This document shows, piece by piece, positions 424-54,057 of a DNA stretch of 64,000 bases. The translations under genes were made by a program, and so were the position numbers. Source of the stretch: Hormiphora californensis (lineage: Eukaryota > Animalia > Ctenophora); NCBI GenBank assembly GCA_020137815.1, contig CM035355.1:3534001-3598000 (forward strand). The letters run 5' to 3'. Each line of letters opens with the position of its first letter. Position 1 is the first letter of the stretch. The notes beneath the pieces are model-generated. The model made no database searches. It was not told where the DNA came from and was given only the letters and a program-made list of their open reading frames with translations.

Positions 424-2483
424 ATGGGGGAGCCACGGCCTCCGATGACCATTTTTAGTGGGCAAAGCCATCGGTCCTTTGCTGAGGATGTCTGCAAGTG
501 AGTACACATCTTTGAACATTTTCAAATATGGCCCATTTTCACAACTTTCATCTTTGTTTAATCTCTTTTTTATACCTTGTTGTTCAATTTTCAGTCACGT
601 CGGCATTCGATTGGGCCTGGCGACAGTTAGTAACAATAGTTCAACAGAAACAGATGTCACTTTGAATGAAAGTATTCGAGGTAGGTATCTAAGTAGGCAT
701 ACGCTCCAGACCTGTCTAGCGACGCCGAGCCGATCAAAACGAACGGCTTCATATTTTTCACATGCCAGCTGCCAGCTGTCTACTCTATACAGTGTTTGTC
801 TCTGGCCTTTGTTTTGTGGATAATTCCCATCAACTCTGCATATTTTGTAACATTCTCTAATTTAGGCAAGGAAGTGTTTGTGATACAGAGTGGCTCAAAA
901 CGGGTGAATAATGATGTTTTTGAGATGCTCAACCTCGTATACGCCTGTAAAACATCCTGTGCTCGGCGTGTTATAGGTATGAGGTCGACCAGTGTTAGGT
1001 TGTCGATGTTTATCGAATCTTGGAGTGACAGCAAACTACCAAGATCTTTCATTGCATTCTACTATTGTTCTGACCGATACAGTTTGTAACAAGGGTATCG
1101 TTTTCAGCGGTGGTTCCCTATCTTCCCTACTCGCAGCAATGCCGCATGAGGCGGAGAGCTTGCATTACTTCTAAACTTATCGCAAAGATGATGTGCAACG
1201 CAGGTAGGATTCCTAAATTTGTACCTATTCCAATTGATACACTCTGTAGTACCTTGTACCCTCTTTAACATGCAACTTGGTCTGTCTGCAGTTCTTTCCA
1301 GCATCTTGAAATATCTTGATTGATTGTGTTCTGCAGGTATCAATCATCTGATAACAATGGACCTACATCAAAGGGAGATACACGGGTTCTTCGATTGTTC
1401 AGTGGACAACTTGCGATCATCGCCCTTCCTTTTACAGGTTTATTCCTTGTTCGATCTTGAACTTTCTCTTTAGCGAGAAAACTTCATTTTACCAAGTTTT
1501 ATGCTTCAGGCTTTTAAAGTTCATTTCATTTCAGCAAAGGAATCACATAATAAAAGCACACGATACTTCATTCTATTATGCACATATTATTGGTAACTCT
1601 AGACCTCTCTCCCCGCAGCACATTCTGGACACAATACCTGACTATAAAGAAAGTGTGATCATTGCCCGCCACCCAAGTGCCACCCGAAGAGCCACCAGCT
1701 ACGCGGAGCGTCTCCAGGTCAACTTTGCAGTCATGCACGGTGAACTAAAGGCCGAGGAAGAGGTACGATCTTAATTCCGGGAACAAAATAGACCTTCAGA
1801 CTAGTTTATAAACATGGTTAGCGTATGTTAATTATTGCCATTCAAAAGAACTCTCATTTCAGCAAGAAATAGACGGGAGAACATCGCCACCCCTTCCCTC
1901 CGTGTTTCCCCAGCAAACCCCGTTCGCGTGCAGCTTCCCAATGCCAATACCGAGTATCCAACAGAAAATCAAACCTTCACCAACTCTAGTGGGGACAGTT
2001 AAAGACAAGGTAAACCAGAGTTAGAGTAAGCTAAATCTTTCTCTAAATCGCAGATAACGTTTTCATCAAGACTAAATTATTTCCAGGTTGCCATAGTTCT
2101 TGATGACATAATTGATGACGTAGAACCATGGGCTTTATTGGCCGGTTTTCTGAAGGAGCGAGGAGCACGAAGAGTGGTTGCCATGGCACCCCATGGAATT
2201 CTATCGGGAAAGGCGAGGCAATTCATTGAACAAGCATCAAGTCTGGACAGAGTCGTTATTACAAACACAGGTATGTCTACTAAAATCCTCAATAACGAAT
2301 TCCAGTTCCACCAAACTTCATTATTATAATCAACCATATGTTTCAGTGCCATTGTCGGAGGAGCTTCGTTCTCACCCAAAGATCAGCGTGGTTGATGTCA
2401 GTAAAATGTTTGCAGAGGCCATCAGACGGACTCACAACGGAGAAAGCATGTCAAAACTGTTTACTAACGTTACGGAAGACTAA
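424..2483 (+). CDS. PRPSAP: Phosphoribosyl pyrophosphate synthase-associated protein (PRPSAP1/2-like), 9 coding exons, ~359 aa
   Basis: Phase-consistent GT-AG exons 424-497, 595-680, 866-976, 1108-1203, 1337-1437, 1619-1762, 1863-2009, 2087-2270, 2347-2483. Translation [13 protein letters not shown]...[12 protein letters not shown]...[15 protein letters not shown]...[13 protein letters not shown]...DNLRSSPFL...DGRTSPP...VLDDIIDDV...[18 protein letters not shown] (not YARQD), DDIIDD (not DDMADT) and the DGRxSPP insert mark the non-catalytic PRPSAP rather than PRPS. Confidence 0.93.
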
Positions 2484-5303
2484 AAATTGTTACCATTGAC
2501 GGAAAATCAATTTTTTCCGGGGAACGTTTTTTGTCGAAAATTGCGGGGAAATGAAATGTTTATTTTGTTGTATAAATTGTTTTATATGTTGATACTGCTG
2601 CCAAACGATGTGTTTTAAACTAAATTGGATGGACATTAGACGATGTTTCCCAAGTTCAGGTGTTTCAATAAGGTAATCTGTTCTGTCGGATGGTGTTCCG
2701 ATTGTTCACATTTTCCATCCCTTAGTCATCAACAAAAGACAATTAACAAAATACAATCTACCGCATATAAGTCTACCGACTCGATAATATGGTTTCGGTG
2801 GACGATCAGGCTTCCACGCATAATCGATTTACATTGTGAGATGAGGTTTGAGGTCTCCCTCTAATAGAAATTCGAGTCATTGGTAGATTCACACTTTACT
2901 GTTGCCTACGTCGTCGCCATCTCTTTACAAAATGTAATGGTGTATATGGTGTAATTCACACTGTAAAGTAACACGCCCATGGCCCAGCGTGACATTTTTT
3001 AAACTGTATAACCGGCTGTCCAAAACAAATTTTCGACAACGATCGCTTCTCTTGGTAAACGATTTGGGAGAGTATGCCCATATACTTTGTTCCTTTTATA
3101 AACACTTCCTCAAAACCGTTCAATGCTTCCTTGCATCTGATATTTTTCTTCTATTGTCGTCTGGCTAAACAACCTTCAACCACACATGCCTCAGCAACCA
3201 CCATATGCCTTGTGAAATTATGTTATTTGAGGCTCATGATACCCTCCCCTGCTGCATTACTCTGCGGTTGGAGGAGGAAGAGTAATACTGGGTATTGTCA
3301 TGAAGCACGCCATGCTGCCCCCTGTAAATACAGAGCCGTGTCACTATCATCGGGGGATAGCTCTATTTCTCTGATTGACTCCTTATACAGTCTTTTGGTC
3401 CTTCATCAGTCTTCCATTGACTTTTGGTACACTCTCAATTCAAGTTTTCAGATAAATTAGTTTTTGGTAGAATATTGTTTCATTTCATTGTTGAAAATAG
3501 TTCAAAGATATGTAATGCCCGTGTGTCTGTGATATAGTGGTATCGTATCATCATTATCGCAATATGAACTGATATTATTCTATTTGTCACCATATTTGCC
3601 ATCCCCTTTTTCAGCATTGCGAATTAAATCTCACCCCTTCTTGAAGTAAAACTCGTTAAATCGTCATGATCAACCTTTTCATCTAAAGCTTGGCTATACT
3701 AGGACTGATTCATTTTATCAATTTATGCAGTATCCAGTATTTTATGTTAACTTCATTTTCATAAGTCCATCGTATGAGTGTAAAACGGGAGACCTTCTCA
3801 AAGTACGATTTTCGAGAATCACATCTGGCGTCTAAATATACATAGTCCGATAGGTTAGGTTCTTTGTCCTAGCCCCATCTTACTAGGAGTAGGCTACTGC
3901 AACGACATCATGGTCCTACTGACATCAGCCCCATCTTGCTAGAATAGATTTGGAATACGACATAACAGAGCAACCTGAATCATGCTGAAGTTGGGTAGAA
4001 AACCGTGAGAGCACTGAGAGTAGCAGTAGCATGTATTCATCCTGTTCTACTCCTTAAATTGCAAAACATATTTAATAAATGTTGCCTTTGGTAGACCGCC
4101 GTATATCTACTGCACAAAAGATCATGGTTTAATTTAGACAGAATAAACAGACTAGTCTTTTGCTGCCAAACACATGTTACAAGTCCTTTATTCCAGCAAC
4201 TTTCACTTATCATATCACAGACTGACCCTCTCTCATAATCTGGAATTTAGGGGGAGGGGGCCATTGCTTGGAAAGTAATATGCAATTTATAATTGCTAGA
4301 GTCTCGAGGAATTCATTTGCGGGAATTGTTTTTTGTGTGAATGCATGTATTCGTCATTCCATTGTCCAATTAGTTTTTGAAAGGAAGGGGGTTGAGAGGT
4401 TTGGATGCTCAGTCTTTTCTCGCAATTCTATTCAATACCTTTCTGGGCTTTCTGAGTTAGAAAAAGTTAGAAAAAAACAGAGATCTTGCATATCCGTACA
4501 ATTCAACGATATTTTTGCAACTGATGCACAGCCATTGATACATTTGTTGTGTAATATCTCAATCTTCAATCTGTTACAATCGATACGATTACTCTTTCTG
4601 AGCATTTTGCTGTGTTTTATTGGCAGATGGAACGAAGCTCTACAAATTATATGGTCCCCTAAAATGTTACAAATGTCATAAAACTCACGGAAATGTGAAT
4701 CTTTGAGTAATTTGCATTTTGGTATAATATGTCGTCTTATGTATTATCATATTCATAATATTTACTTTTATTACTGCTAAGTGCTATCGCCTGACAGTAA
4801 TGTAGGTGTGGTGCTGAAATTATGGACTCCTCTTTTTCAAGAGAATTCAGAATTTTTCCTCGCCAATTTACAGTGCTGCTTGTAGTCAAATTACCGTAAT
4901 GAAAATACAGTAAGGAGACGCGCACGGTGCATAACGCAAAAAAGTTCATGTGTCAGCACGTACTAGCGCCCTGATTGGTCACGGTTGCGCGTCGTCTTAC
5001 TGTATCTTCGTTTTCCATTACCGTTTTCCCACTACAAGCGACCGTGTAAGCTTATATCTGGCTGTTGAAAGCTAACTTGACACTTTGCCTGGTAGATTCA
5101 CAGTGCACTATAGCTTTACTACCGTGAGCCTTTTATTAATCTACCATTGGTTAACTTGAAATTAACTTAATTTCTTGTGTGGAGCGCATGGAAAGAGGGT
5201 CGAGCAAGGCAATTAATTTCTATGTTTATCTTATCAAATTGTACTGGGTTTATCTAACACATAATATATTCTCCACTAAATTTTTAGCCAGACTGAAACA
5301 CCA

Positions 5304-13560
<8,257 letters not shown>

Positions 13561-14512: not shown

Positions 14513-17500
14513 CTAAATGTGATAATGGTGATCACAACTGTCTGCTCTTCTGAAAGGCGATGAATAATAATCTGAGTAAGTAGTCTCCATTTCCTCCTCG
14601 GGAACGTGATCGCTACAAGCTGCCGCACACAGGATACTAGATACCAGAGCTGGCCTCATCCTACTCCTCACTCGAAACACCTGAGTAAGTGAGTTGGACA
14701 TTGTTGGGCTACTAAACACGTTGAACAGGGGTAGCTACTTCAAAATGGCCATCTCTAAACGCCGCCCCAACTCACTTACTTATAAGCCATATAAAAAGTA
14801 ACTGAATGAGTAAAGCAAAAGTTGGAATAATCACTGACTAAAGATTGGGAATAAAACTAACCGAGTGTTCGTGGGAGAAGTTAGGAAAAGATATTGTGAT
14901 TCGGTGTTTAGCTGTTTTCATTACAGCTCCCACGGCATGGTAAGGGAGCTCCCGACCATTCACCGCCCTCATAAACTCTATCACCACCAAACCTGCATGA
15001 GGGGGAGGAACGTTGGGAACGTTGGGAACCTTGAAAGAGTTCCACTATTAGAACAAGGGATCGGCAATATGTCTATCAGTTCTTGTATCGCAGGCATGTA
15101 CATCAAATAAGTACATTGTAGGTGGACATAATATCTATTATCTGGTCAGTATGAGTATCATAGTTACTAGGTAGTAGGGGGTCTCATACCGGATACAGCG
15201 CGATGAAAGCCCTCCCCGTCGTCTGTGTGGTACTTCCTGGTGTCTGTAATAGCGCACTGTCTCCACAGATACAGACGGGAACTCAGTCCAGACAGAAAAT
15301 CAGGTGGAATCTGGTTGACCTGGTGACAGTGGAGTGTTACAATTAGAGTCACAAACGCTAAAATAAATTAAAAATTTTATATTGGGAGTTGAGATGACAC
15401 ACATACCCGTCGTTTTGGTGTAGACACGTTAATCTGAATGCTCATTGTATCGGAGGGCTCAAATACAAAGATGAAGGAGGAGAGTCTATCAATCATGGCC
15501 CACGAGTAGGGGATCACTGAAAACAGATCTGACCGGAGACACCGTGCTAACCGCAGCGATTTGAGGAACGAATCTGCACCGTTCTGAAGAAAAAGACACG
15601 TCGATAAGAGACGTAAATCTTGGAAATCTAGAATAAACTGCAAAAATATCAACCATTCTATCTTGTACCCCACTCCCCCACCCCCCTACTATCTATAATC
15701 TACAGCTTACACTTACCGCTAATATCTCGAAATTCTCGTGAGTGACATCAGTCAGAATGTTGGAGTAGGGGAAGGAGACATCCACTATGTACGGCACACT
15801 AAACTCTAACTCTTTTCGTTGATACTCAGTGAAGTCTATCTTGATTGAACGATAGTTTTTTAGTGCCAAGAGAAAGTCAATGAAAAGCATGTGGAAGTCT
15901 GTGGATTCCTTCTTTCGGGAGCAGACGTAGACCTAGGGAGAATTAAATTGTTAGCACTATGTGAAAATTAAATATAGTCAGACCCCGATTTACCGGGAGG
16001 CTTTGGTGAAAGGGTTTTACCCGGTAAATCGGGTATAATGGGTAAAATTGAAATGTTTTGATGTTTTATTTCATCTTTCTTACCGCGAGGGCTTCCACAA
16101 ATCTGAGAATACCAAAGTGAACTCGGCTGAGGAAGAGTTTCAAACAGAGCAGCTTGCAGACACGTACAAAGGAGAGGGTGGTGGTGGGCTGTCGAGCGAA
16201 GAAGTCGTGGTAGCTCTCAAGTAGGGAGGAACTGAAAATAAAGGGGGGTATTTTGAAGTCGGTTACATTTTACAGAAACATCTTCGCTACTACCACGAAT
16301 AATTACGCGTCAAGCGACAAAACCAACAGCAACAGTGGGCTGTGAGCACGATTCCTAATAATGGACAAAATTGGGGCAACTTTACCTGGTAAGTGATACA
16401 AAATATCAATTTACCTGTATCTCTTTCCCATGTTTTCAATGATAAACGACTTATCATGAGAGTCGCTTATCCCCCGTGTCTGTTCTTCGATATGATTTAG
16501 TACACGCTCTTGCTGAAAATATACAAAAAAATAACCTTTTTGTACCCTGCTTTGCACAGAAAGGTAGGGTTGCCTCTATCACCCTCATGAATTAATAAAA
16601 AATAACAAGGCCTGAACGAGTTAAGGAGATGAGGAAAGAAAATGAGTGAATGCCCAAGGGTTGTCAAACAAATATATCTGCACTTTCTAACCTGTTGCAC
16701 TGAAAAGGGTAACTCTAAAATATCTGAAGGAAGGTGGTCAGAGCTGGGTGTGTCTACTCGTGTAACTTGGTCTTCTGTCTCCACCTCTTTTGACTGAAAA
16801 TATAATAGAGGAAATTTCAGAAACTGGGATTTTTGGAGTTGTCCACTGTACTGTTTACAAACAACAGCGTGGTAGTGGTGGTGGGCTTTACAGACCGAAA
16901 CAACTTCTTCAGCTCTAGCACCCTTATAGGGGACCAAATGAGGACCCACCTCTGTCCTCTAACTTCTTCACCTCTTTTTAAAACCCACCTCTAACTTGAT
17001 ATCCCCCATATCAGCCCCCTGATCAGCTTTAGAATGGTACGCACTATCCTCCTCCTCCTCATCACTCTCGCATCTCAACACGAACTCACTACCAGCCGAC
17101 ACCACACTGGCTCTACTAGTGGTTGTCATGGCAGCGGGAAATATCTCCCCTGCAGTTTTGAGGTCACCAAGATCACCCAGGATCACGGGCTTGGGAGTTG
17201 AGAGCTTTCGGAGGGGTTCTGAGCGCTGAAAGGGATGATGGTAAGAGATAACAAATAAATTAGGACACAATTGCGAAACTAAGAAAGAAGTATTCTATAA
17301 TAGGAATAACTAAGGAATAGAAGAAGAGTATAATTCTGTTGTGTAATACCTGTATTGGTGATCCTGGTCCATGGCCGGTGACCATGTCCCTTGCCAGTAA
17401 CAAGTTTACTGTCGTATCTGCAAGGAAGAGGGACACAAGTTAGTTAGTTAGTTACACGTTTTATATTGAACGATGTAAGATCATTTGTCTATTCTCTATA

Positions 17501-18372
17501 TGTACCACGATAATCCACGTATAGCCGATGTAAAAAGTCGTGGGACGTGGGTCTGGATAACAGTTACCTTGGAATACGAACTGAAAGCCCCCGTGTATCT
17601 GGTCGAAATCAGCAATATTCCACGTTAGTACGATATCACGTACACTCATGACACAATCTGGACTGTCAAAATCATAGCTCCTGAAATGGTTACACAATTT
17701 CACTTATTACCTTGTGAAGGGAGCACGGCGGTAACAGAGATTATTGAAAACTGTTCGTGTGTTCTTAATAATTCTTACCTATCTTTGTTTGAAAAGTATA
17801 GGACAACATCGATTTCAAAATCAAAAGCTACACAGTGGGGCTTTCTCTTCTCGTCAAGGATAGCGTATCTGATGGGAAAAAGGAGTTATAACTTTCGTTG
17901 AAGCGGGGGGCGAGAGGGTTGGGCAACTGAAACCCAGGTCATACTGAGCACAGCCCACGTTTCCTTATACAAAGAGCATGGTATAGGGTTCAAATTCTGG
18001 TATTTCTCTCACCTGGTTATACCAAGATTCTGGTTCTCCTCTATGAGACCCCTCACACCATATATGGGAATCACGTGACACATAACACCATATATGGGCA
18101 TCACGTGACACATTTCTCTCACCTGGTTATACCAAGATTCTGGTTCTCCTCTATGAGGCCCCTCACACCATATATGGGAATCACGTGACACATAACACCA
18201 TATATGGGCATCACGTGACACATTTCTCTCACCTGGTTATACCAAGATTCTGGTTCTCCTCTATGAGGCCCCTCACAAGCTCCTCAACACTCTGTGTAAC
18301 ACCACTCCCCTCATAGGGTCGGAGAGTCTCAGAGAGCTCTATCAGAGCAGAGGAGAAGTATCTCGGATCCAT
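14513..18372 (-). CDS. Divergent 2'-5' oligoadenylate synthetase (OAS)-like nucleotidyltransferase-fold protein, probably inactive; up to 13 exons, ~579 aa
   Basis: Phase-consistent minus-strand exons 18372-18233, 17868-17779, 17680-17568, 17417-17350, 17225-16989, 16793-16692, 16512-16415, 16231-16084, 15932-15717, 15583-15407, 15319-15190, then tentatively 14801-14780 and 14711-14513. Motifs align by eye with OAS1: FEIDVVLYFS~[38 protein letters not shown]~[36 protein letters not shown]~ELLTVYAW; FIDFLLALKNYRSIKIDFTEY~FRTVLELVINYQQLCIYWTKY; PYIVDVSFPYSNI~PVILDPADPTGNL; FEILANGA~WRQLAQEA. The 3' end is uncertain. Confidence 0.78.
18003..18276. repeat. 110-bp tandem duplication (~2.5 copies) of the OAS-like exon-1 3' end and donor
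   Basis: TTTCTCTCACCTGGTTATACCAAGATTCTGGTTCTCCTCTATGAG recurs at about 18003, 18113 and 18223. Confidence 0.95.
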
Positions 18373-27484: not shown

Positions 27485-29083
27485 ATGGACAGAAGAGAGT
27501 ACTTGTTCAAGGTGCTGGTGGTGGGAGAGTGTGAGACGGGGAAGACAAGTTTCATCACCCAGTATGTCCACAAACGGTTCGAGAACAATTACAAAGCAAC
27601 GGTAAGAAACATTTGTTTGATGTTATACCCTTCGTCTCTTGTTGTACTCTCGTCTCGCCGATCATTGGAAGGGAGGTGTCGAGACAGTTGAGTACTGTAT
27701 GGCGGCGCCATACCCCATTTGATTCTCAGTGCGCTCAGATGGGTCGATGGTGTCGAGACAGGTTGAGTATAGAGCTTTGCCTGTTATTCAAGATGAATTT
27801 TCAATGCTGTTTAGTTCATCCGACGATTTATCCTTTCAGATAGGGGTAGATTTTGCATTGAAAGTGCTCGATAAAGGAAGAGACAAGTTAGTCCGACTAC
27901 AATTATGGGACGTTGCAGGTGAGTAAACCTCTTCATACTCTGTCTGGCGGCGCTGATTGAAAGTGCGCTCAGATGGGGTCCGCTGCGCTAGACAGTTCAT
28001 ATACTTGTTTTGAGAAGAGCCCGAAATAGTTTGAGCTAGTCCTGGCCATCATCCACCATCTCTTTACCAGTGTTCACTGTAAAGAGATGGTTGATGATGT
28101 TGTCACTGAACACTTGCAACACTAAATACATGTTTCTCACGGCAGGTCAGGAGCGTTATGGTAACATGACGAGAGTGTACTACAAAGAAGCAGTGGGTGC
28201 CTTCCTAGTTTTTGATATCACCCGAATGAGTACCTTTGATGCAGTACAGAAGTGGAAGGCAGATATCGATGAGAAGGTGACGCTACCTGATGGGAGCAGG
28301 ATACCTGTCGTACTACTAGCCAACAAGGTACGTGTACAACCAACCACCAGACAGTATACATTGTTTTTGAATTATAAGGGCCCCCAACCCCAGGTATATA
28401 ACAGCTGTCTGGTGCTGTTGAGTACCAAGTCCTTTTTACATTATTCATGAGCATGAACTGTACAGTGTGTCCTGCTATGTTCTAACCCTCCTAACAGACT
28501 GTCTCTGCGTGGTGACAGGGTGTTAATCAAGGCAATGCTAACCCATTTCATTCTCAGTGTGATTTGATAGAGGAGGGATTTGTTGCCTCTCATCTTGACA
28601 AATACTGCGAGGAGAAGGGCTTCCTGGGATGGTTTGAAACATCAGCCAAAGATAATATTAATATTGAGGAAGCGGCTAATCTTCTCATAGACGAGGTAGT
28701 GTTATTGGCGGACGAGGGAAAGACAAAGAAAAAGCATTGTGTTGTTAGTTGACTGACCCTACTACAGATCATGAGTGACAGACCAAAGTTTGGAAAGACC
28801 GCCATTTTCCTGGTACTAAAGCCCTTTCCTCGACACCATACTGTCAGAGCATTGTCCCCACCATACTGATAGTGAGCGATACAAGTTTTTGACAGTCAAG
28901 ACTAATACATGGAAGAGCAAATGATTTTGGACAAGCATGAAGATCCCCAACATTTCTTGTTGAGTACTCAACACCCCGTTTCAGATAGTCAGTTTGCACG
29001 AACAACACAGTTTTGAGTCAACTCCAGACCCGGATCAGGTGAATCTAACGGAGGAACCGAAGAAGAAGGGGTGCAGTTGCTGA
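27485..29083 (+). CDS. RAB32: Rab32/Rab38/Rab29-subfamily small GTPase, 5 exons
   Basis: Exons 27485-27601, 27840-27918, 28146-28327, 28558-28695, 28985-29083. MDRREYLFKVLVVGECETGKTS...YKATIGVDFALK...LQLWDVAGQERYGNMTRVYYKEA...LLANKCD...WFETSAKDNINI...KKKGCSC (CxC prenylation motif). Confidence 0.93.
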
Positions 29084-30590: not shown

Positions 30591-33500
30591 TCAATTGGTC
30601 GTCTTGGCTTCCTCTGCTGCACTCTTAGCCTTCTTCTTCTTCTTCTTATTGGCTGTTTTCCTGTTGGCAGACTGGGCTAGTAGATCCTCGATCTCCTTAT
30701 TCTCAATCTTGTGTTCCGATTTACAGGTAGCCGGGTCGAATATACCTCCATTGATCCTGATATTACCGTTGGGTACAACCAGGACTGTGAATTTGAACTG
30801 AGCCACGGGCTGACCGGTCGCATCTTGCTGGACAGGGTACGCCTGGAGCAGCTCGTGCGTGACACACTCCTTCAATCCCATCTTAGCTTTGGTCTCCTCC
30901 TCAAAGGCTCGGAGAGTGAAGGGCATGAGGGTGAACCTGTTACACACGTCACTGTAGAATGCTCGGCTGGCCTTCATTTTTAACTGGTAGATCTCCTCTG
31001 TGCGCCTGTAGACGGTCGTGTTGGCGTTGTATTCCTTAGTCTTGCCAGTTCCAGGGGTGACAAACACATCCATGGCGTACACTTCGTGAACAGCAAACTC
31101 CATCTGAAATGAAAGGTTTCAAACTTTCATCAACTACAACGTAAAACTATTTATTGAGGATGCTTATTGTATTGGGGAAATGAGCCATTCGAAATAAATT
31201 CAACAGTGGTGACAATGCCACAGCCCCAAAAGTCACCGTGTTTTCTTGAATAATATGGGGAGGGGGACAATATTTGTTCAGAATTTCTCTCTTAGAGAGG
31301 AATGGGCAGAAGTTTGAGATAATTTCACTTACATCCTTGACTTCCTTCTTCTGGATCTCAGAAGGGTTCAGTACAATCTGTTTGTCAGTATCAGCCTCTG
31401 TTTGGTATCGCTTGATCTGGTAGGACAGCATACCCTCGAGAGGAGTGCACTTGTAACTGTCAGTTATCTTCTGTATCGTATCTGTAACCTGAGGTGGACA
31501 ATGAAATTGGAAGGCTGGAACACTCAAATGGGGGGGGGGGGAGAATTGATCTACCGATTCATGTGAGCCATACAAAGGGAACAATGATGGAAGATTGGTA
31601 CAATAAAAAGGTTTTATTTGTAGGATACAATTCTCTCTCACTCACCAGTCTCCCTCTCATTTGTTTAAAAACATACTCAGGTAGTAGGATACACATCAAA
31701 CACACATAAAATACACACTATAATAGTCACGTGACCACGTTGTGAAATGCGCGTCCCTTTACAGCCCGATATGAGTACTGAATAGAGTCCTCTATACAGC
31801 AATGCGCGCCCAAAACTAGCAATACCTCCCAGCGCTGGTCAAACCGCGGGAGTGTGGACGCCGGTTACTCAACATATGTATTACATGTATTACATCACAT
31901 ATCCCACATAACATCACACCTGTTTGTTACTGTTTCCAGCCTTGATCAGACGAAGGGCGACCTCTGAGCAGTAGTGGGCAGCCAAGATTGCATCGGCCAT
32001 AACCCCAGAGGCGGGGGCATCAGGTGTGGCACCGACCACGATAGTGTGTGCGACCACAGCAGCATACCTGAGAGAGAGGGGTGATGTCATCATCTCACAC
32101 ATTGATAATAGTTCACTGTCAGAAATAGATGCAGTCGGATTGGAGTGTGGGATAAACCAACCGCAATAAAGATGTGGGTGATCATTAGATATAGAGTTTA
32201 TAGAGATGTGGGTGATCATATGATCATTAAACCAAGCACGAGAAAAATGGGACAACACAGTGCAGACAAACAAACAGGTGTTTAAGTGCAGACAAACAAA
32301 CATGTTGTAACATTGTTGTTACATGTTGACCTACCATATCACAACTCACAAACCCATGACAACAGTGTCAAGCTACAAGCGTAGTGCGTACCCTAATATC
32401 ATCATTATCAAACAAACAATATAGTACAAAATGTCATGGCAATTTTACAACTTGCACAAGTTAATAAAATGTTTCAACACCTACCCATCAATATGTGCTC
32501 CAAGTTCGATCTTCACAAGATCGCCCTCCTTCACATTAACAACAGGATCACTTCTCAGGGGAGAGAAATGACAGACAACCTCATTTATTGACACACAAGT
32601 AGGGAATGCAATGCCTTTCTTCAGGTTTTTGTCCTTTTTGTAAAGTTTGGCCGTCTCATCTGTAATGAGTTTGTCACCAAAGGAGCAGATATCAATAACA
32701 CTTGCACCAGGAATTACTTCTTGGATAATAGCCTTCATCACCTGAGATGGAATAAAGAGAGAATTATAAATGTACCGTGTGTGAATTTAGTGAACTTTTA
32801 GCAGTCCTAAACGGAACCAAACTCAGCTATGTTTCTAATACAGTGTGGCCATTTAAAATATACCCCCAGCAAAACAGAGCACGTGTAATGGAAAACCACC
32901 CAACAATCAACAGTTTAAAATCAGTAGACATGTAATCAGTATAACCTGACCATCATTAGTTGAGGCCAGTTGACCATCTCTCTCTGTCTCTCTCTCTCCC
33001 TCTTGAAAAAAACAAGAGGCCAGTACATCGTGCATTATGTCTCAACTTACGAGAGAGGGTTACATTTCCTGAGCTTAGTTTGCCGTTTGTTTGTGTATTG
33101 CAACTATTACAGACCAAACGGGGGGGGGGCCCGCGTATTAAAATGTCCTTTAATGTCCCTCGATTTTTGGGTCATTAAATTGCCCGAGGTAATTTGGGAC
33201 ATTAAAAGACATTAAAGGACATTAAAGGACATTAAAGGACAAGAAATTTTAACTTCCAAAAACCATTTCACAATGTGTTACCAACCATTTCTACCGCCAA
33301 TGTACTACTAAAGGTCCCATCTTTCGATTCCAATGAATGTTCATAAATGTTCAGTGGTGATTGGGCTTGCTTTTGCGTGGGACGTGGGTGCGGTAGCTTT
33401 TTTACATGTGCATATTTCTAGCCTTGACGATATCACAAAATCATCTTATGAAACGAGTAGAGAAGACACCGAAGTCATAAAAGTGAAAGAGAACAGCTCC

Positions 33501-42600: not shown

Positions 42601-45600
42601 GCCCCGTTGTTTTAGTTTTAGGGGGGATGTTTTAGGGGGGATGGGTTGAGTTTGGGTTATATTCGGGTCGGGGGGCCTTGCCAGGCCCCGAATGGTTTAT
42701 GGTTTATGGTTTTTTTTCATCTGGTATTAAGGGCCTGTCGGCTCGGCCCCGTTGTTTTAGTGTTAGGGGGGATGTTTTAGGGGGGATGGGTTGAGTTTGG
42801 GTTATATTCGGGTCGGGGGGCCTTGCCAGGCCCCGAATCGACCAAAACGCGGAGTTTTTACGTCAGCCGACCCGAAACCTGATTAAATTTGGCCACCCGC
42901 TGGTCTCAGGGTCTCCAAATATGTCAAAATATGTCTGAATTGTCATTTGGGGTCATTTAGACCTTTTAATTACATGTAATTACCCTTTAATTACATGTAA
43001 TTACATTTTAATTACATGTAATTACTTCCAATCACATTCCAATTACTTCAGCACCTTGAGAGCTTTCGAACGCACCCTAGAACACCTTTCTACTCCTTCT
43101 AATTGCCGAGATCTGCATACCCCTTATTTTGACTGTTTTTCGCGTCCTACCCCTTATAGGTTTGGGTATGGCCATCGCCACACCCCCTATACGTCGCGGG
43201 ACCTCGAGACCTTTCCAACGAGCCATAGAACACCTCTCTACTACTTCAGGGGGCTTCAAAACTTTCACTCTAAAAATATCTATGGTTATGGTTTTATGGT
43301 TTTATGGTTTATGGTTTTTTTTCATCTGGTATTAAGGGCCTGTCGGCTCGGCCCCGTTGTTTTAGTTTTAGGGGGGATGTTTTAGGGGGGATGGGTTGAG
43401 TTTGGGTTATATTCGGGTCGGGGGGCCTTGCCAGGCCCCGAATAAAACTGTAATAGCAGTGATTAACTGTGATTCACACGCACCTTCAGTTCGTCAGTAT
43501 CAATTGTAGAAAGGTCCAACTCGTTCTCGTCCTCCAGATCTCTATCAGATGGGAACAACTTGCCACAATTAATTATCATTATCTGAAGGGGAGAATGAAT
43601 AACAATTAATTATCACTAGAACTGAACAGTTGAAAAAGTCACAAGGCCGATTGGACTATCCCGGCAGCGAACAAGTTCATTGAATTTAGTTCAAATAAGG
43701 GGATGGGATTTTTTATACCTCTGTAACTTTTTTCAGCTTCTGAATATCCTCCATTTCCTTCTCCAGACTATGGTCAGCACTGGTGTTTTTCAGGATGGTC
43801 GGAGAAAACACGATGGCCAGATTGTTGAGGTCCATTAGATTGGAGGCTGAGTAGGTTTGGACCTTGTAAAGGAACATACACAACATCTAGGAAGGGGTGG
43901 GTTAGGGGGTTGATGAAATTGAGCAAAATTTATACACCAAAAAATATCCCAAAAAGTGTATTTCTAGTCCACTTTCTACTTCCAGTAAACTTTCTAAAAT
44001 TAAAACTTACTCTAAGTGTGTTAAAGTTGGTTGGAGGAATCCGTTTTAGCAAGTGCTGCATCTCATTCAACCCTTCATTCTGAAACAACACACAACTGGA
44101 ATTAGGTACACAGAGGAACACTTTAGGAACACTTTAGGTACACAGAGGAACACTTTAGGTACACAGAGGAACACTTTAGGTACACAGAGGAACACTTTAG
44201 GTACACAGAGGAACACTTTAGGTACACAGAGGAACACTTTAGGTACACAGAGGAACACTTTAGGTACACAGAGGAACACTTTAGGTACACAGAGGAACAC
44301 TTTAGGTACACAGAGGAACACTTTAGGTACGCAGGGGAACACTTTAGGTACACAGAGGAACACTTTAGGTACACAGAGGAACACTTTAGGTACACAGAGG
44401 AACACTTTAGGTACACAGAGGAACACTTTAGGTACACAGAGGAACACTTTAGGTAGATAGAGTCTAGAGAACACACTCAGACTCATCCGAGATGAATTGC
44501 TCAGAGTTCAGGATCTCTCCATTCTCCACACAGAGAATGAGAGCTGGTACTTTCCTACAAAGTCTTTCTGAACTTCATAGCAACTGGTGACCCCTGTCAT
44601 AACTGATACTCGAGACTTTGTAATGTCGCACACGGTTCGGAGTTGTGAGACAACTCCTGGTCATGAAAAAAGACACTCTTACTCTCCTTGCTCAACCCTG
44701 TTTCACCGCACGCACAAATGTAAAGGATCAGGGTTCGAACAAACACACTCTTACTTGATCTACCGAACCCTCACAAAGGTGTGAGCCACACACACTCTTA
44801 CCGGATTAATTTCGTATGTCAGAATGATTGCCACAAAATCTTCGTAGAGCGAACTAGGAATGATGGAGTCAGGAAGGACTCTGAGATAAAGTTTTAGGAG
44901 GCTTGCTACTGTGTGGGTGTCACATCTTATCTCAAGATTTGGCTCTAGCCCCTCCTGGAAATCCATCTTTAGCTGCTTCACCTGTGTATTGAGAGAGGTG
45001 TCAGAGGGGTGTGAACTGTGAGAGAGAGGTGTTAGGGGGGTGTGAGAGAGGGGTGTGCGTGTTAGGGGGTGTGAGAGAGAGAGGTGTTAGGGGGGTGTTT
45101 GTTACAGTGAGGACTGAGGGTGATATATCATTTATTTGCTGGAAGAGGGAAAGGCGTATAAAGGATATTGTAATGGTCGATCTGATATTATTAGGTCTAC
45201 CACAGTACCAGTTTGTTAGTCCATAGATGACAGATAGAGAGTACTAAAAAGACTAAATACTCCAGTAACTCTATGTATTAGGCTTAGGGTGAACAGCAGA
45301 CTAAATCCTAAACCTATTATAGATGGACGTTATTTTCTTGTTATTCTCTAACTGCGGAGCTAGAAATAGAGATACATGATAGTACATGGATGTGGTGTTT
45401 TATTTCAGTGTGCTACTCAAAGCAGAGTTTCGGATAAACTCCCCATTTGTGTAAACTGTAAACTGCAAACCCCTTGTTGTATAAACGTTAGTACACTGTA
45501 ACACTCGGACTTCGGAGTTTTTAATGGCTACAGTAACAGTGTATACAGATACAGAATCCATGATATTTGTGCAATGTCCTAAGGAGCTAGTATGGCTTCA

Positions 45601-46584
45601 AAGTCAGTCACAAGTCACATCTCATTACACAAGTATGTGTGTTTGTGAGGGTAGACGACTGTAGCTGATGGTGCTTGATCACTCATCACTTGTTATTATC
45701 TTATATGTCCGAATTTACTCAGCGTGCAATTATTAACTATTAAAAACTCCGAGCATTGCATGTATATTAAGCTTCCTAGTGAGACCTAAAAAACGAGCTA
45801 ATGAGCAGATATATTACTAATAAAAGCCTATCCATTAGTACTTCTGTACTAAGTCACACACACACAGTAAAAGCCTATCCATTACTAATAATGCTCTACG
45901 TAAGTACTAACCGTCCGTTCGTTGCCAGGGAGACGAAAGATGCCATTCTCGACAATTCTAGCGGGAGTATCCAAGAAGCCTATACACTGGGAAATCACCC
46001 TGGGAACGGTTCCTCCACCGTGAACTCTTTCTCTGCGGACCGAAACCTCAATCAGGGTTCCAAACATTCCTCCACCAAACGGGGCATAGCTGCAGTAGAG
46101 GGGGGTTGATGATGTTAGAAAGTGCATGATCCCTTGTTGGTCTTTATTGATCTTGTCTTACCAAACACTGGATATGGCATCTATGAACTTTTCTCGTTCT
46201 GACTTAGTTTCACACATAAAATGGCAAGTATCATCTCGGTCTATCAGATCAAACTTGTAAACACCATCAGCAGATGGTGGCTGTGTTATCCTCTTCCCTG
46301 AGAAAAAAACGAATTAATTGAAGGACAGTTATGCCAGGGATTATTATCCTGTAATTTTGTAATTTTGTAATCCTCTTTGCACAGATATATCCACTACTTT
46401 TACTGTCAACAACTTTGCTCCTCCCCACTTTACCTGGCAACTCTATTTCACCCAAGGGAGCAGAGCTGGCATCGTCCTTTTTGTAGTAGGAGAGTGTGAT
46501 GCCCTTAATCACGACCCATCTCCGCTCGAACCTCTTAATCGCCCCCGAGGTCTCCTTTTTGAGCCACCCCGATGTTATTGACAT
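39652..46584 (-). CDS. ARHGAP24: PH + RhoGAP + coiled-coil protein (ARHGAP22/24/25 family)
   Basis: Exons 46584-46434, 46297-46162, 46089-45912, 44981-44802, 44079-44011, 43886-43719, 43582-43484, 40717-40529, (40378-40295), 39978-39652. PH domain SGWLKKE..RRWVVIKGITLSYYK; family linker FGGGMFG; arginine finger GIFRLPG; HTVASLLKLYLRVLP; NLMDLNNLAIVFSPTIL; coiled coil; Pro-rich tail. The N-terminus may extend upstream (acceptor at 46615). Confidence 0.88.
39763..39940 (-). repeat. 39-bp coding minisatellite encoding (PIPPPKPxGLNLx) x ~4.5
   Basis: CAGATTTAATCCGG(C/T)AGGTTTTGGTGG(C/T)GGAATTGGCGC repeats inside the RhoGAP terminal exon. Confidence 0.92.
41593..43446 (-). mobile_element. Tandem array of a ~600-bp Helentron/Helitron2-like non-autonomous element (module order A-A-B-B-A-B)
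   Basis: ~475-bp module A starts at about 41594, 42091 and 42841; ~150-bp module B at about 42545, 42693 and 43295. On the minus strand the unit begins TTT-ATTCGGG..GGCC-hairpin..CCCGAAT, carries the subterminal IR CCGACCCGAA/TTCGGGTCGG and ends with hairpin AAAAC-TCCGC-GTTTT then GGTT. Internal AATTACATGT and ATGGTTT repeats; no TSD. Confidence 0.68.
44103..44453. repeat. 21-bp intronic minisatellite (~16 copies)
   Basis: TAGGTACACAGAGGAACACTT repeated; lies just upstream of a RhoGAP acceptor. Confidence 0.96.
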
Positions 46585-46726
46585 TACATGACAGGGTCCA
46601 GACGCATTCCCACTACTATAAAGACGGACTTTTAGAACTTTTCAAATGCTTTAAACATCTCAGTGGTCAAAAAACGTTGAAAACTGAAAATTGCGGTTTA
46701 AAAAAACCAAAAACTTGGCATACGTT

Positions 46727-49242: not shown

Positions 49243-49409
49243 GTTACCGCTTAGTTTACTCAAATTGGCCATGTGGTTGCATGGCTATAGCCGTTTGAAA
49301 AAAGTCGGTCTAAGTGTACTCTTTTGGTAGCACGCACCTGTAAACACGCTGCAAGGCACCCATATTATAATCGCGCCCTGTTTGGGACAACCGCGGGTTT
49401 CAAAAATTG

Positions 49410-49446
49410 AAACTTTTCAACACTACTTTAAACAAATTAATTTGAG
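49410..49446 (+). other. Ctenophore spliced-leader exon sequence (no donor site), fused to the LINE 5' end
   Basis: AAACTTTTCAACACTACTTTAAACAAATTAATTTGAG matches, as I recall it, the Pleurobrachia/Hormiphora trans-spliced leader. It is followed by ATCT, not GT, so this is not an SL RNA gene. Confidence 0.8.
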
Positions 49447-49461
49447 ATCTCACCGCAGGTT

Positions 49462-50697
49462 TATGGAACCGCCCATTGGGGGCAGACCGACGCTAGAGGA
49501 TGGTACAGCCAATCCTCCATCCCAGGATCCCGAACCGAAACAGCGTCTACAGCAGCTATTAAGGGACCAGAACCTTCTTGAATATGTAACTGAAGAATCT
49601 GAAGTACCGCAAGGTAGACATCCGACCCGACAAATACTTTGGACACTCCTGAAAGAGGCCTACCAGACGGTATGTGTACTATCAACTGCCCTCGCTACCT
49701 CTCAGCCCGAGCACCTTGACACTGAGGTTGGGATCGTTAACCCGGATTCTCTCGATAAACGGCTGGCAGAATTCCAAAAGGAAATCCTTCACACTGTCGA
49801 ACAATCTATTCTCAAACACCACGCCCAGCCTTCTTTTGCACAGCTTGCTGCACAGCTTGCTTCGAAGGAAGCTTCACCATTGACTCCTGGCCGTAACCAA
49901 CCTACTGTACCAAATCGACCTGTAGCTCCCGCTTCTACCACAAAAACCTCTCCCACACGGAGGACGATTGTAGTTGACTGCTGTGAAAATGACGTTGCCG
50001 ACATAAAGAGGTTAAGTGAAAGTGCCCTTTCAAAGACAAAGGTCTCTAAACTGGACACAAAAAGAAACTCTGTCATAATAACTGTTCCTGAGAGTGAGGG
50101 GATAAAAGCTGCAGAGGCCCTAACTACTGGACTGCAAGGAAAATCCGTTAGAGTAAGGGCATCTCCCACCAGTAAACTCTCTATCCTGAACTTCCCTATC
50201 ACAGACGAAATCAAGCAAACTGAAAACCGGGTGCAAAGAAATGCTGCTATACTCGAATTATTGCAGCAAAAAAAAATGACGAACTTAATCATGAAGATGT
50301 TGACGTGGTCTATTTCAAAAACAATGCAAGCAGTCCGGATTTATGTACGGTAGGCATCAGGCTGCCCACCCCGATCAAACGTCAACTGCTCAATCAACGA
50401 GTGGTCTATGTCGACTACTCGGCGTGCAAGGTTGTTGACAGGGTCCACGTTATCCGATGTTACACCTGTCAGGGGTTCCATCACACTTCTGAAACGTGTG
50501 TTAAGGATGCAGTATGTGCCCATTGTGCAGGAGGCCATGCGACGAAGGACTGCAGTGTCAAATTAAACACGAACTTTACCCCGTCTTGTACTAACTGTTC
50601 GTCAGAGGGCTATCTGAATATTTCACACGCTGCAAGCAGCCAAGACTGTCCAGTTTATAAGTCTAAATTTGATGTTGCCAAGTCAAAAAACCAGTAG
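49462..50697 (+). CDS. LINE ORF1 (gag-like, three CCHC-type zinc knuckles); one frameshift at the A9 run 50268-50276
   Basis: ORF-track pieces 49382-50353 and 50305-50697 join across the homopolymer. [40 protein letters not shown]. Confidence 0.85.
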
Positions 50698-50705
50698 AGC
50701 TTAAC

Positions 50706-53621
50706 TTGGCCACCCTTAACTGTTTTTCTATTCGTAACAAGCTTTATGATGTGTTATTTAGTGTGATTGACAACGATATTGATGCAATATGTTTGACTGA
50801 GACATGGCTTAATCTTACCGAGAGTGCTATTGAGAGTGAGGTACAAGAGCTTGGTTACAAATTGATCAGTCGGTCGCGTGGCTCTAGAGGGGGTGGTGTT
50901 GCCATCCTCATGAGGAAATCCTTCCACCATGTTCAGGTAACACACTCCTTTTCATCATTCGAGTGTGTGGAAACCCTAATCACACATCCTCAAATTAAAC
51001 CTCTTCGACTTCTTGGCGTATATCGCCCTCCATCGAGTCCTACAGCCTTATTCCTAGATGAGTTCGAAACGCTGTTACATGAACTTTCTGGTAGATCAGG
51101 TGAAATTGTTTTCACAGGTGATTTCAACATCCATATCCACGACAACAGCTCAACTTTTACTAAATCATTCCTCCAATTGTTGGATGACCATCTTTTTCAT
51201 CAGTTTGTAAATGAACCTACTCATATAGCAGGGGGTATACTTGACCTTGTTGTTGCTAAATCACTCCCCAGTTCATCTCCGATCTCTAACGTGGAAGCTA
51301 ACATGATCCCTGCGGCACCTGATCATGCATTGGTCTCTTTCAATTTGCACATTGGTGCACCTACCAAGCGGAAGAAGTACATTTCAGTTAAGAAGAGGAA
51401 CATTGAATCCCTTGACTTGGACTCATTCAGAAGTGAAATCCTGAAATCGCCACTCTGTGACCTTGATATCTTCACAACAAATCTTGTTGAGGCTATTGAA
51501 CTCTTCGAGGAGCTTCTTACGGAGTTTCTGGATGAACTTGCCCCAGTCGTTGAAACTATAGTTCCGGAAGAACCCAGTCCTAGATGGTACAACAGCAGTT
51601 GCCAAGATGCAAAACGTCGCCGAAGAGCAGCAGAGAGAAAATATCGAGCCGCATTGAAAAAATCGGTGTGTATCAAACAACTACTTGATTCTCTTCGTAC
51701 TCTTCGAGAAGAGTCAAAGGCTGCCACCAAGTACATTGTTGGAACTAGAAATGACTACTATCGTGGCCGGCTTGAAGAGGCAGGGAATGACTCTAAGAAA
51801 ACCTACAGAATCATGAATGGACTACTTGGACAGGAACGTAATCCTACAATTCTACCAGAACACAGTGATGAAACTGAACTCTGCCAGAAGTTCATGACAT
51901 TTTTCAAGGAGAAGATAGACAAAATCTACCAAGATATTCAGAGTTTGCAATCAGATGAACATCAGGAGTTTTCTTCTAGTTCCACTACTGACAACGTTCC
52001 TCCACAGTTTAACTGTTTCCAGCCTGTTACCAGTGAGGACTTGGTCAAGGTTATACGATCCCTAAACTACAAGGCGTGTGACTTGGACCCTGTTCCGTCG
52101 AAGCTCATGGCTGCATCTGTCCATGAACTCATGCCTGTTATCGATTCAATTGTCAATGGAAGTTTGGAGAGTGGAGTTTTTCCATCGGCGCTGAAGAAAG
52201 CAGTTATCCGTCCTGTATATAAAGGAAAAGGTCTTGACTCGAATAACTTGGGGAGTTACAGGCCCATCTCCAACCTCAGTTTTATTTCCAAAATCATCGA
52301 GAAGTGCGTATCCATTCAACTCACTGCACACCTTGAGCAGCATGGACTATTTGCGTCTGTTCAATCTGCCTATAGGAGTAAACATTCTTGTGAAACGGCT
52401 ACCCTGAAAATCTTCAACGACCTTCTTGTGCTGACGGACAAGCGTAGAAAAGCTGTACTTTTACTTCTGGATTTGTCGGCTGCGTTTGATACTGTTCCCC
52501 ATTCTACACTTCTCCGCCGTCTCGAGCACCTGTATGGTGTTAAGGGAGTAGCCCTTGATTGGTTTACGTCATATCTTCAAGAGCGGAAGGCATTTGTAAA
52601 AATTGGACAAGGTCAATCATCAGAGGTGGAAATCTGTATTGGAGTACCCCAAGGGTCTATTCTTGGGCCTCTTCTTTTTGTTCTTTTCACTAAGGATCTT
52701 GAGACTATCGCAGCTAGACATGGTGTTAAAATTCATTTATACGCAGACGATTCTCAGCTATATATCAGCTTCACCAACAACAACTGGGCACAGTGTGAAA
52801 GTCAGTTGCAAAATTGTTTTACCGAGGTTGAGAAATGGATGGCATCGAGTTACCTAAAACTCAATCCTTCGAAGACAGAGCTGCTATTCATCTCATCAAG
52901 AACTGACAGAAGTCCCAACCCGATTGGCTATAATGATACACTGACACTAAGAGGTATCAGTCAGTCATCAAAAGCAGACATTACCCCATCTCAACAGGCC
53001 AAAAACCTTGGAGTTATCTTTGATGAAAGGTTAACCATGAAGGCTCATGTCTCAAAAGTGGTGAAGGAATGTAACCTGAATCTCATCAATCTTCGGCGTA
53101 TTGCTGACAAACTTTCGAGGAAACACAAGGTTCAGCTTGTCCACTCCTTGATACACTCACGTCTTGATTATTGCAATGGACTGTTAATTGGTGCAGATCA
53201 AAGTGACATTTCTCGACTACAAAAAGTTCAAAACTCTGCGACACGATTTGTTTTCGGCAGAAGGCAGTGGAGAGGAGTGACTAAACTCAGAAAGCAGCTA
53301 CATTTTCTTCCTGTTTCGGCCAGGATCGAGTTCAAGATTTGTCTCATGGTTTTCAAATGTCTCAACAATCTTGCGCCATCATATTTACAGGATATTATCC
53401 AACGGCGACAACCTAAAATCAAATCTCTGAGGTATGACAATGATGATACCCTCCTTGAGAGAGACTTCTCCACCAAATACAAAACTTCTCAGCGTGCTTT
53501 CCAGGTATCAGGACCTAGGCTATGGAATAGCCTACCTGCCTCTATCAGAAATTGTTCAGATGAGGTCATCTTCAAATCGAGGTTGAAGACCTACCTTTTC
53601 GACAAGTCATACGACCACTGA
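50706..53621 (+). CDS. LINE ORF2: apurinic endonuclease + reverse transcriptase (intact, 971 aa, no initiating ATG)
   Basis: APE motifs CLTETWL, GGGVAI, YRPP, GDFNIH, LDLV, PDH; RT motifs [42 protein letters not shown]; L2-type C-terminus [22 protein letters not shown]. Confidence 0.96.
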
Positions 53622-54057
53622 TCTGTAACCTTGAGTTGTTTACAGCACCTTTTTCTACCGTGTTTTTTATTTGAAACGTGGTTTTCAGCTATCTTATTAA
53701 TCTAACTTATTAAATACTCTAACTTATTAATTAATCCACATTTACATCCAATGATGATTTAGTTCAATGATATATTTTGTATGTACGTGTGTGTTGCATG
53801 TGTGTTGCATTTGGGTGAGTGCTGTGTGTGTTTGTGTGTGTGTTTGTGTGTGTGTATGTATTTAGTAAAGTAGTAAAGTAAACTTTACTCCCAGTAATGG
53901 CTTAGTTCTAACCTTTTTTCTTGGTCTTTTATGGTACACCGCTTTAGAAGGCAGTAAGAGTGCTCTAGCGTATAAATTGGTTTTTATAGCGTTATCATTT
54001 TTTTACTATATATGTCAAAAAGCGGGATATTAAGTGTGAAATTGAATTGAATTGAAT

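Follow-up and report, generated by a model that had tools for sequence, protein, structure and literature searches.

Catalysis in the OAS nucleotidyltransferase (NTase) superfamily requires three carboxylates for two metals, and human OASL is inactive partly through a threonine at the place of the third (PMC4446440). Eukaryotic OAS nests within CD-NTase clade C, a bacterial group that includes CdnC, and in an EukProt-wide survey with hidden Markov models both of the included ctenophores (EP00115 and EP00116) score 0 for OAS and for cGLR (PMC10732462). A literature search returned no paper on a ctenophore OAS, and ctenophores go unmentioned in the available main texts of PMC10400998, PMC10732462 and PMC6307210. 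Here we describe a gene of the ctenophore Hormiphora californensis, located in a stretch of 64,000 nucleotides (nt) that we call the window (assembly GCA_020137815.1, contig CM035355.1, positions 3,534,001 to 3,598,000). The gene lies on the minus strand of the window, from an ATG at 18372 to a stop codon ending at 14513, and its 13 exons form a single open frame of 605 amino acids (aa). We suggest that it encodes a protein of the OAS branch that has probably lost catalysis.

Family assignment and active site

Homologue searches, each of which scored only part of the candidates, yielded four proteins (P0001 to P0004). When P0001 was run against the ESM Atlas, all ten of the best matches with a family belonged to the nucleotidyltransferase clan; Mab-21/cGLR was not among the ten matches listed and had no Pfam match. 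For a finer comparison, profiles were built from fetched prokaryotic NTases in 12 groups, with CdnC identified through 6p80. CdnC was used as a proxy for OAS because OAS1_C was not found in the bacterial and archaeal genomes searched (sets of 5 and 301), nor was it found in 14 controls. Of the 12 groups CdnC gave the best hhalign match to the ctenophore profile, with P=0.0031 and a collinear alignment of 273 columns; this whole-unit score was equalled in none of 150 block shuffles, and the reversed profile scored 23.5 against 31.0. Another hhalign match to CdnC, over 114 columns of the C-lobe, gave P=0.0016, and the C-lobe aligned alone gave P=0.00065, a score reached by 1 of 100 shuffles.

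Further we added three ctenophore rows to a six-row CdnC profile, searched the PDB again and compared the bits before and after. All six OAS chains gained (OAS2 46.1 to 63.7 bits, OASL 23.8 to 31.8, human OAS1 31.3 to 36.3, pig OAS1 42.7 to 45.7). Of the other NTase chains, 17 in number, 12 lost bits, 2 disappeared from the list and the remaining 3 gained no more than 1.5 bits. This result favours OAS over CD-NTases, but a test starting from CdnC cannot rank poly(A) polymerase (PAP) or DZF proteins fairly. At the residue level, S283-K309 aligns by eye without gaps to pig OAS1 S186-K212 (9/27 identical) and E329-F345 to E233-F249 (7/17 identical, also by eye), followed by the D..P..N motif. The N-lobe can be placed by eye in an ungapped register with pig OAS1 at an offset of 9, with only 3 identities in 30 residues, and hhalign and MAFFT against CdnC give the same register. 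The original prediction had claimed an ungapped alignment to human OAS1; its register stands, but the identities are few and the score of the N-lobe alone is marginal. The C-lobe motifs listed there (RxxK, ExLxVY and PxIxDxxxPxxN) are present. The predicted order of secondary structure elements fits the two-lobed OAS fold, which we infer with good support; the AlphaFold model of the whole protein has a predicted local distance difference test (pLDDT) of only 39.9, which makes Foldseek and VIA searches with that model meaningless. From these indirect profile tests and the residue comparison, ancestry in the OAS branch appears likely. The earlier idea of a degenerate OAS-derived enzyme with an appended unknown domain is supported by the same evidence, and we infer its inactivity from the residues described below.

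Mapped from pig OAS1 at the offset of 9, the P-loop pair G61-S62 corresponds to D52-E53, K65 to K56, and D74-x-D76 to E65-x-D67. The third catalytic Asp corresponds to N119 in the MAFFT alignment with CdnC, hhalign being out of register at that strand. In the five sequences compared, K56, E65-x-D67, N119, R306xxK309, E329xLxVY334 and D383xxxP387xxN390 are invariant, as is a further acid, D63; the place of the P-loop Gly (position 52) is always Asp or Glu, and that of the Ser (position 53) reads E, E, A, S and S. The protein lacks both the hG[GS] P-loop and a full set of three catalytic carboxylates, with E65 and D67 kept. As the third metal ligand is an Asn and the P-loop Gly an acid, no polymer should be made, and we consider a loss of polymerase activity likely. 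The predicted retention of the Lys and loss of the third Asp were found in all five sequences. The predicted change of G-S to D-E was seen in the window and Bolinopsis proteins only, since the Ser is still present in two of five. The reading of DxD as ExD was correct throughout, but is not in itself a loss. In fact, cGAS has ExD.

In pig OAS1 the acceptor adenine is contacted by S186, T187, T190, Q193, V78 and L149 (PMC6307210). The ctenophore protein keeps S283, S284, V69 and L121 at this site. The retention of K56, R306, K309, E65, D67 and E329 together with part of the acceptor-adenine site suggests, as a weaker inference, a pocket that binds nucleotides without joining them.

Gene structure, conservation and neighbourhood

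All 12 introns are of the GT..AG type. RNA contigs join exons 5/6, 7/8, 8/9, 9/10, 10/11, 11/12 and 12/13, that is 7 of the 12 introns; these contigs come from three runs of two studies and cover exon 5 onward, not exons 1 to 4, which does not speak against those exons. The remaining five introns are supported by a Pleurobrachia bachei gene model, P0004 (93% identity over residues 1-286), and by full-length homologues. The RNA contigs differ from the gene at 29 bases, of which 28 are silent third-position changes, and in a comparison with the coding sequence of P0003 the proportion of nonsynonymous differences (pN) is 0.26-0.39, with the synonymous proportion (pS) saturated at 0.82-0.88. The gene is real, expressed, spliced, conserved and under purifying selection. 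The 11 to 13 small exons proposed earlier have been resolved to 13, and the RNA data provided part of the check called for; the length of about 579 aa was too short. The exons and an associated repeat are as follows.

18233..18372, minus strand: exon 1 (aa 1-47), start codon and two N-terminal helices
18002..18331, minus strand: 110-nt tandem repeat, by which intron 1 carries two copies of the exon 1 3' end with its splice donor
17779..17868, minus strand: exon 2 (aa 47-77), degenerate P-loop D52-E53 and K56; strand with D63, E65 and D67
17568..17680, minus strand: exon 3 (aa 77-115), N-lobe helix and hairpin
17350..17417, minus strand: exon 4 (aa 115-137), strand that carries N119, the counterpart of the third catalytic Asp; insert begins
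16989..17225, minus strand: exon 5 (aa 138-216), acidic, poorly conserved insert
16692..16793, minus strand: exon 6 (aa 217-250), remainder of insert
16415..16512, minus strand: exon 7 (aa 251-283), linker helices; invariant G279-K-R-Y-S motif
16084..16231, minus strand: exon 8 (aa 283-332), OAS1_C-like lobe with the acceptor-pocket helix, R306xxK309 and E329
15717..15932, minus strand: exon 9 (aa 333-404), OAS1_C-like lobe with V-Y334, T-D-F345 and D383xxxP387xxN390
15407..15583, minus strand: exon 10 (aa 405-463), final helix of the OAS-like unit, then the first hairpin of the C-terminal domain
15190..15319, minus strand: exon 11 (aa 464-507), C-terminal domain with its long helices and the invariant stretch LSSRLYLWRQCAI
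14862..14992, minus strand: exon 12 (aa 507-550), helix and third strand of the C-terminal domain
14513..14680, minus strand: exon 13 (aa 551-605 and stop), final strand, helix with the invariant L567-C568 at its end, acidic tail of variable sequence

Splicing from one or the other of the extra donors in intron 1 leads to a stop at codon 48. Part of the 110-nt unit matches repeats elsewhere in the RNA runs. Ahead of the ATG, at a distance of 10 nt, lies a splice acceptor, which suggests a further exon in the 5' untranslated region.

The homologue clusters contain Bolinopsis microptera XP_063681422.1 and XP_063681423.1 (both annotated as 'uncharacterized'), along with the P. bachei model and a set of unnamed transcripts (491-506 aa). 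Searches of plasmids and GTDB genomes found no relatives, metagenomes gave one contig, and tblastn within the window matched the gene's own exons and the repeated piece only; so far the family is confined to ctenophores, which should be taken as a soft limit. The homologues are 57-60% identical to the window protein over the N-lobe, 54-61% over the C-lobe and 47-59% over the tail domain, with low identity over the insert, so the C-terminal domain seems to be conserved about as strongly as the core. The insert of about 122 aa (24 D/E, 11 K/R) is acidic as predicted, where about 130 aa had been expected, but the prominence given to it in the original prediction is not warranted, as it is absent from three of the five homologues compared. 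Because P0002, P0003 and P0008 have only about 23 residues that align in this region, the sequences indicate that it is dispensable and no family feature. The EukProt model P0004 diverges past residue 286 of the window protein, carries an extra N-terminus of 72 aa and is without the C-lobe, hence it looks mis-predicted; the missing C-lobe may be one reason for the zero OAS score in the survey cited above.

The roughly 150 aa of unrecognised C-terminal sequence noticed earlier correspond to a domain of about 130 aa. When the tail was folded alone (P0003 residues 322-462), the best of five models had a pLDDT of 81.6 and a predicted template modelling score of 0.75, the others having a pLDDT of 40-68. 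The predicted topology is helix-strand-strand-helix-helix-strand-strand-helix, with two 20-residue helices and a short helix after the long pair. Foldseek with this model against PDB and BFVD returned nothing at E<=0.001, VIA found none of 48,161 chains at Z>=5 (best Z 4.1), and there was no usable ESM Atlas match and no useful Pfam match, including to ubiquitin. An absent structural match proves no new fold, and we regard the predicted fold as possibly new. A ubiquitin-like domain was rejected, being absent from the fold searches and of a different predicted topology, and a STING ligand domain was rejected on its absence from the same searches. At the end of the last predicted helix the invariant pair L567-C568 (window 14621-14680, minus strand), beyond which basic or acidic tails follow, is a putative lipid-anchor site.

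The neighbouring genes, assigned by Pfam unless otherwise indicated, are housekeeping genes, and no immune gene cluster was found among them by Pfam. The features of the neighbourhood are the following.

2030-2480, plus strand: phosphoribosyl pyrophosphate synthetase
5280-6185, plus strand: open frame of 302 aa with 13-residue tandem repeats, the opposite strand being open too; its Pfam matches are repeat-driven noise
13030-13560, plus strand: short exon-like stretches of a small gene, tail-to-tail with the OAS-like gene
28040-28447, plus strand: Rab-type GTPase
30594-32786, minus strand: peptidase M24 fold
44763-46641, minus strand: PH and RhoGAP domains
49331-54830, plus strand: element of the long interspersed nuclear element type, with an ORF1-like frame and an endonuclease/reverse transcriptase frame of 982 aa
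58408-59424, minus strand: lipase in a long single frame
62949-64000, plus strand: phosphotransferase of the arginine-kinase type

Alternative explanations

Several results weigh against an inactive, nucleotide-binding protein of the OAS branch. Pfam OAS1_C and NTP_transf_2, proposed earlier as a check, gave no match for P0001-P0004 at E<=10 or for the 13 exons at E<=1, the HMMER filters being such that weak matches are dropped, and PDB sequence searches (including P0001 and exon 9) returned noise only. The HH probabilities are just 10-28%, the archaeal CCA group comes second after CdnC (P=0.023 for the whole unit, 0.0069 for the C-lobe), and the N-lobe alone is marginal against CdnC (P=0.015, 4 of 100 shuffles) and slides to a shifted register. 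The ESM Atlas matches share 126-150 features, under the guide value of 170 for the tool, and rank poly(A) polymerase clusters (0.91) above OAS (0.89). In the pocket, the places of T190 and Q193 read Leu/Ala and Tyr, and with an acid in place of the P-loop Gly the binding of a triphosphate could be blocked entirely. Some of these points would suit a dead and very divergent protein related to poly(A) polymerase, TENT, DZF or Nrap, one that serves as a scaffold in RNA processing and whose tail takes the role of an RNA-binding domain. The top ESM Atlas matches are PAP_central clusters, DZF and Nrap are listed at ranks 25-26 (0.88), and 5a30, presumably a mitochondrial poly(A) polymerase, was newly listed at E 0.92 in the PDB profile search. 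The tail model also meets the PAP RNA-binding domain (1q78) at rank 26 (Z 3.1, root-mean-square deviation 2.5, 63 residues), a weak lead only, since a Z of this size is at noise level and the strands and helices are predicted in an order that is not ferredoxin-like. P0001-P0004 have no Pfam match to PAP_central/PAP-associated, DZF_N/DZF_C or Nrap, the ungapped matches of S283-K309 and E329-F345 are to OAS1, and a clear bit gain was seen for OAS chains alone, in a test that is unfair to PAP and DZF. We find such a relative decidedly unlikely. As for a decaying pseudogene or a mis-assembled exon set, the missing database family match and the duplicated first splice donor could be read that way; the open frame, the RNA joints, the 28 of 29 silent differences and orthologues that are 47-59% identical refute it, leaving it next to no probability.

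There are two further explanations. The protein may still be active, as a nucleotidyltransferase or nucleotide hydrolase whose rewired site uses D63, E65 and D67 on one strand and gives N119 and D52 new roles. This would account for the invariance of D63, E65, D67, N119, K56, R306 and K309, for an acid always at position 52 and a P-loop Ser kept in two of five, and for a pocket conserved more strictly than a pure scaffold needs. On the other hand the superfamily needs three carboxylates for its two metals (PMC4446440) and the third is Asn in all sequences, none of them keeps the P-loop Gly, and the position of the Ser is variable (E, A, S), hence we regard a rewired enzyme as rather unlikely. 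The original prediction favoured an OASL-like nucleic-acid sensor or adaptor. In this reading the dead OAS unit binds double-stranded RNA (dsRNA), and an antiviral pathway is enhanced through the C-terminal domain. Such a role shares with OASL the architecture of a dead OAS unit and an appended domain (PMC4446440), the gain in bits in the profile test was larger for OASL than for OAS1, and the invariant R47, K280-R281 and R338-K339 could make an RNA surface; a sensor working through the latter two basic pairs is possible from the sequence, but not the best reading. Binding of dsRNA by OASL requires R45, K63, K66, R196 and K200 (PMC4446440), and the six OAS1/OASL groove positions, mapped by eye via OAS1, read I37, R47, I50, H291, A295 and T300 in the window protein, so that one of six is basic and one is a His. 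The core is net acidic (44 D/E against 34 K/R), early-branching OAS have few basic groove residues and the sponge OAS is dsRNA-independent (PMC6307210), the predicted tail topology is not ubiquitin-like, and a core identity of 55-61% between distant ctenophores would be surprising in an antiviral sensor that evolves rapidly. With the basic residues for RNA binding mostly missing, a role as dsRNA sensor is doubtful; dsRNA seems not to be the main ligand, and we consider this proposal unlikely.

Proposed function and comparison with known systems

As a whole we tentatively favour a dead NTase of the OAS branch that likely still binds a nucleotide and would relay a signal via its C-terminal domain, a combination which we rate as plausible and a little short of probable. 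With Asn as third metal ligand and an acid at the P-loop Gly, the protein would have lost catalysis, and the pocket likely still binds an adenine nucleotide. The domain of about 130 aa at the C-terminus would be, as a guess, the output that binds a partner, and Cys568 might, as a further guess, tie it to a membrane. Further, we speculate that in comb jellies a dead OAS became a receptor that senses a messenger, either an oligoadenylate or a cyclic nucleotide, and is coupled to an effector domain of new fold. This is a long shot; if true, it would be a readout of nucleotide signals independent of RNase L at the base of the animal tree. RNase L is absent outside jawed vertebrates (PMC10400998, PMC6307210), and a conserved dead OAS with a tail of possibly new fold offers a concrete protein for asking what OAS does there. 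If the family is OAS-derived, ctenophores have kept the OAS lineage in a form that standard profiles miss, and the pseudoenzyme would have arisen independently of OASL.

Compared with animal OAS (pig OAS1 1px5/4rwn, human OAS1 4ig8, OAS2 9h1z; NTP_transf_2 and OAS1_C), the ctenophore protein has the same order and spacing of motifs in both lobes, with counterparts of pig OAS1 K65, R209xxK212, E233, S186 and the PxIxD..P..N motif. It differs in the acid at the P-loop Gly, the Asn at the third Asp, a mostly non-basic RNA groove, a divergence below Pfam detection, the variable acidic insert and the extra domain of 130 aa. CdnC (6p80) is the best profile match of the 12 prokaryotic groups and collinear across the whole unit, but its GS motif and Asp triad are intact and it belongs to CBASS operons; in the ctenophore protein the helix that leads up to RxxK is like that of animal OAS and unlike that of CdnC.

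Human OASL (4xq7) shares the dead OAS unit, the replaced third acid and an appended C-terminal domain (PMC4446440), whereas the ctenophore tail is by prediction not ubiquitin-like and the basic residues with which OASL binds dsRNA are mostly absent. OASL falls within the jawed-vertebrate OASa group (PMC10400998), and any likeness to the ctenophore protein would therefore be convergent. MiD51, for its part, is a non-enzyme (PMC3926953). Both MiD51 and MAB21L1 belong to the cGLR branch, unlike the ctenophore protein as placed here, and are likened to it here by description, not by sequence. They are nucleotide-binding pseudo-NTases. The use of the NTase fold as a scaffold or ligand pocket in place of an enzyme, as in these two proteins, may serve as a working model for the ctenophore protein, which would then be a pseudo-OAS adaptor working more like MiD51 or MAB21L1 than like OASL.

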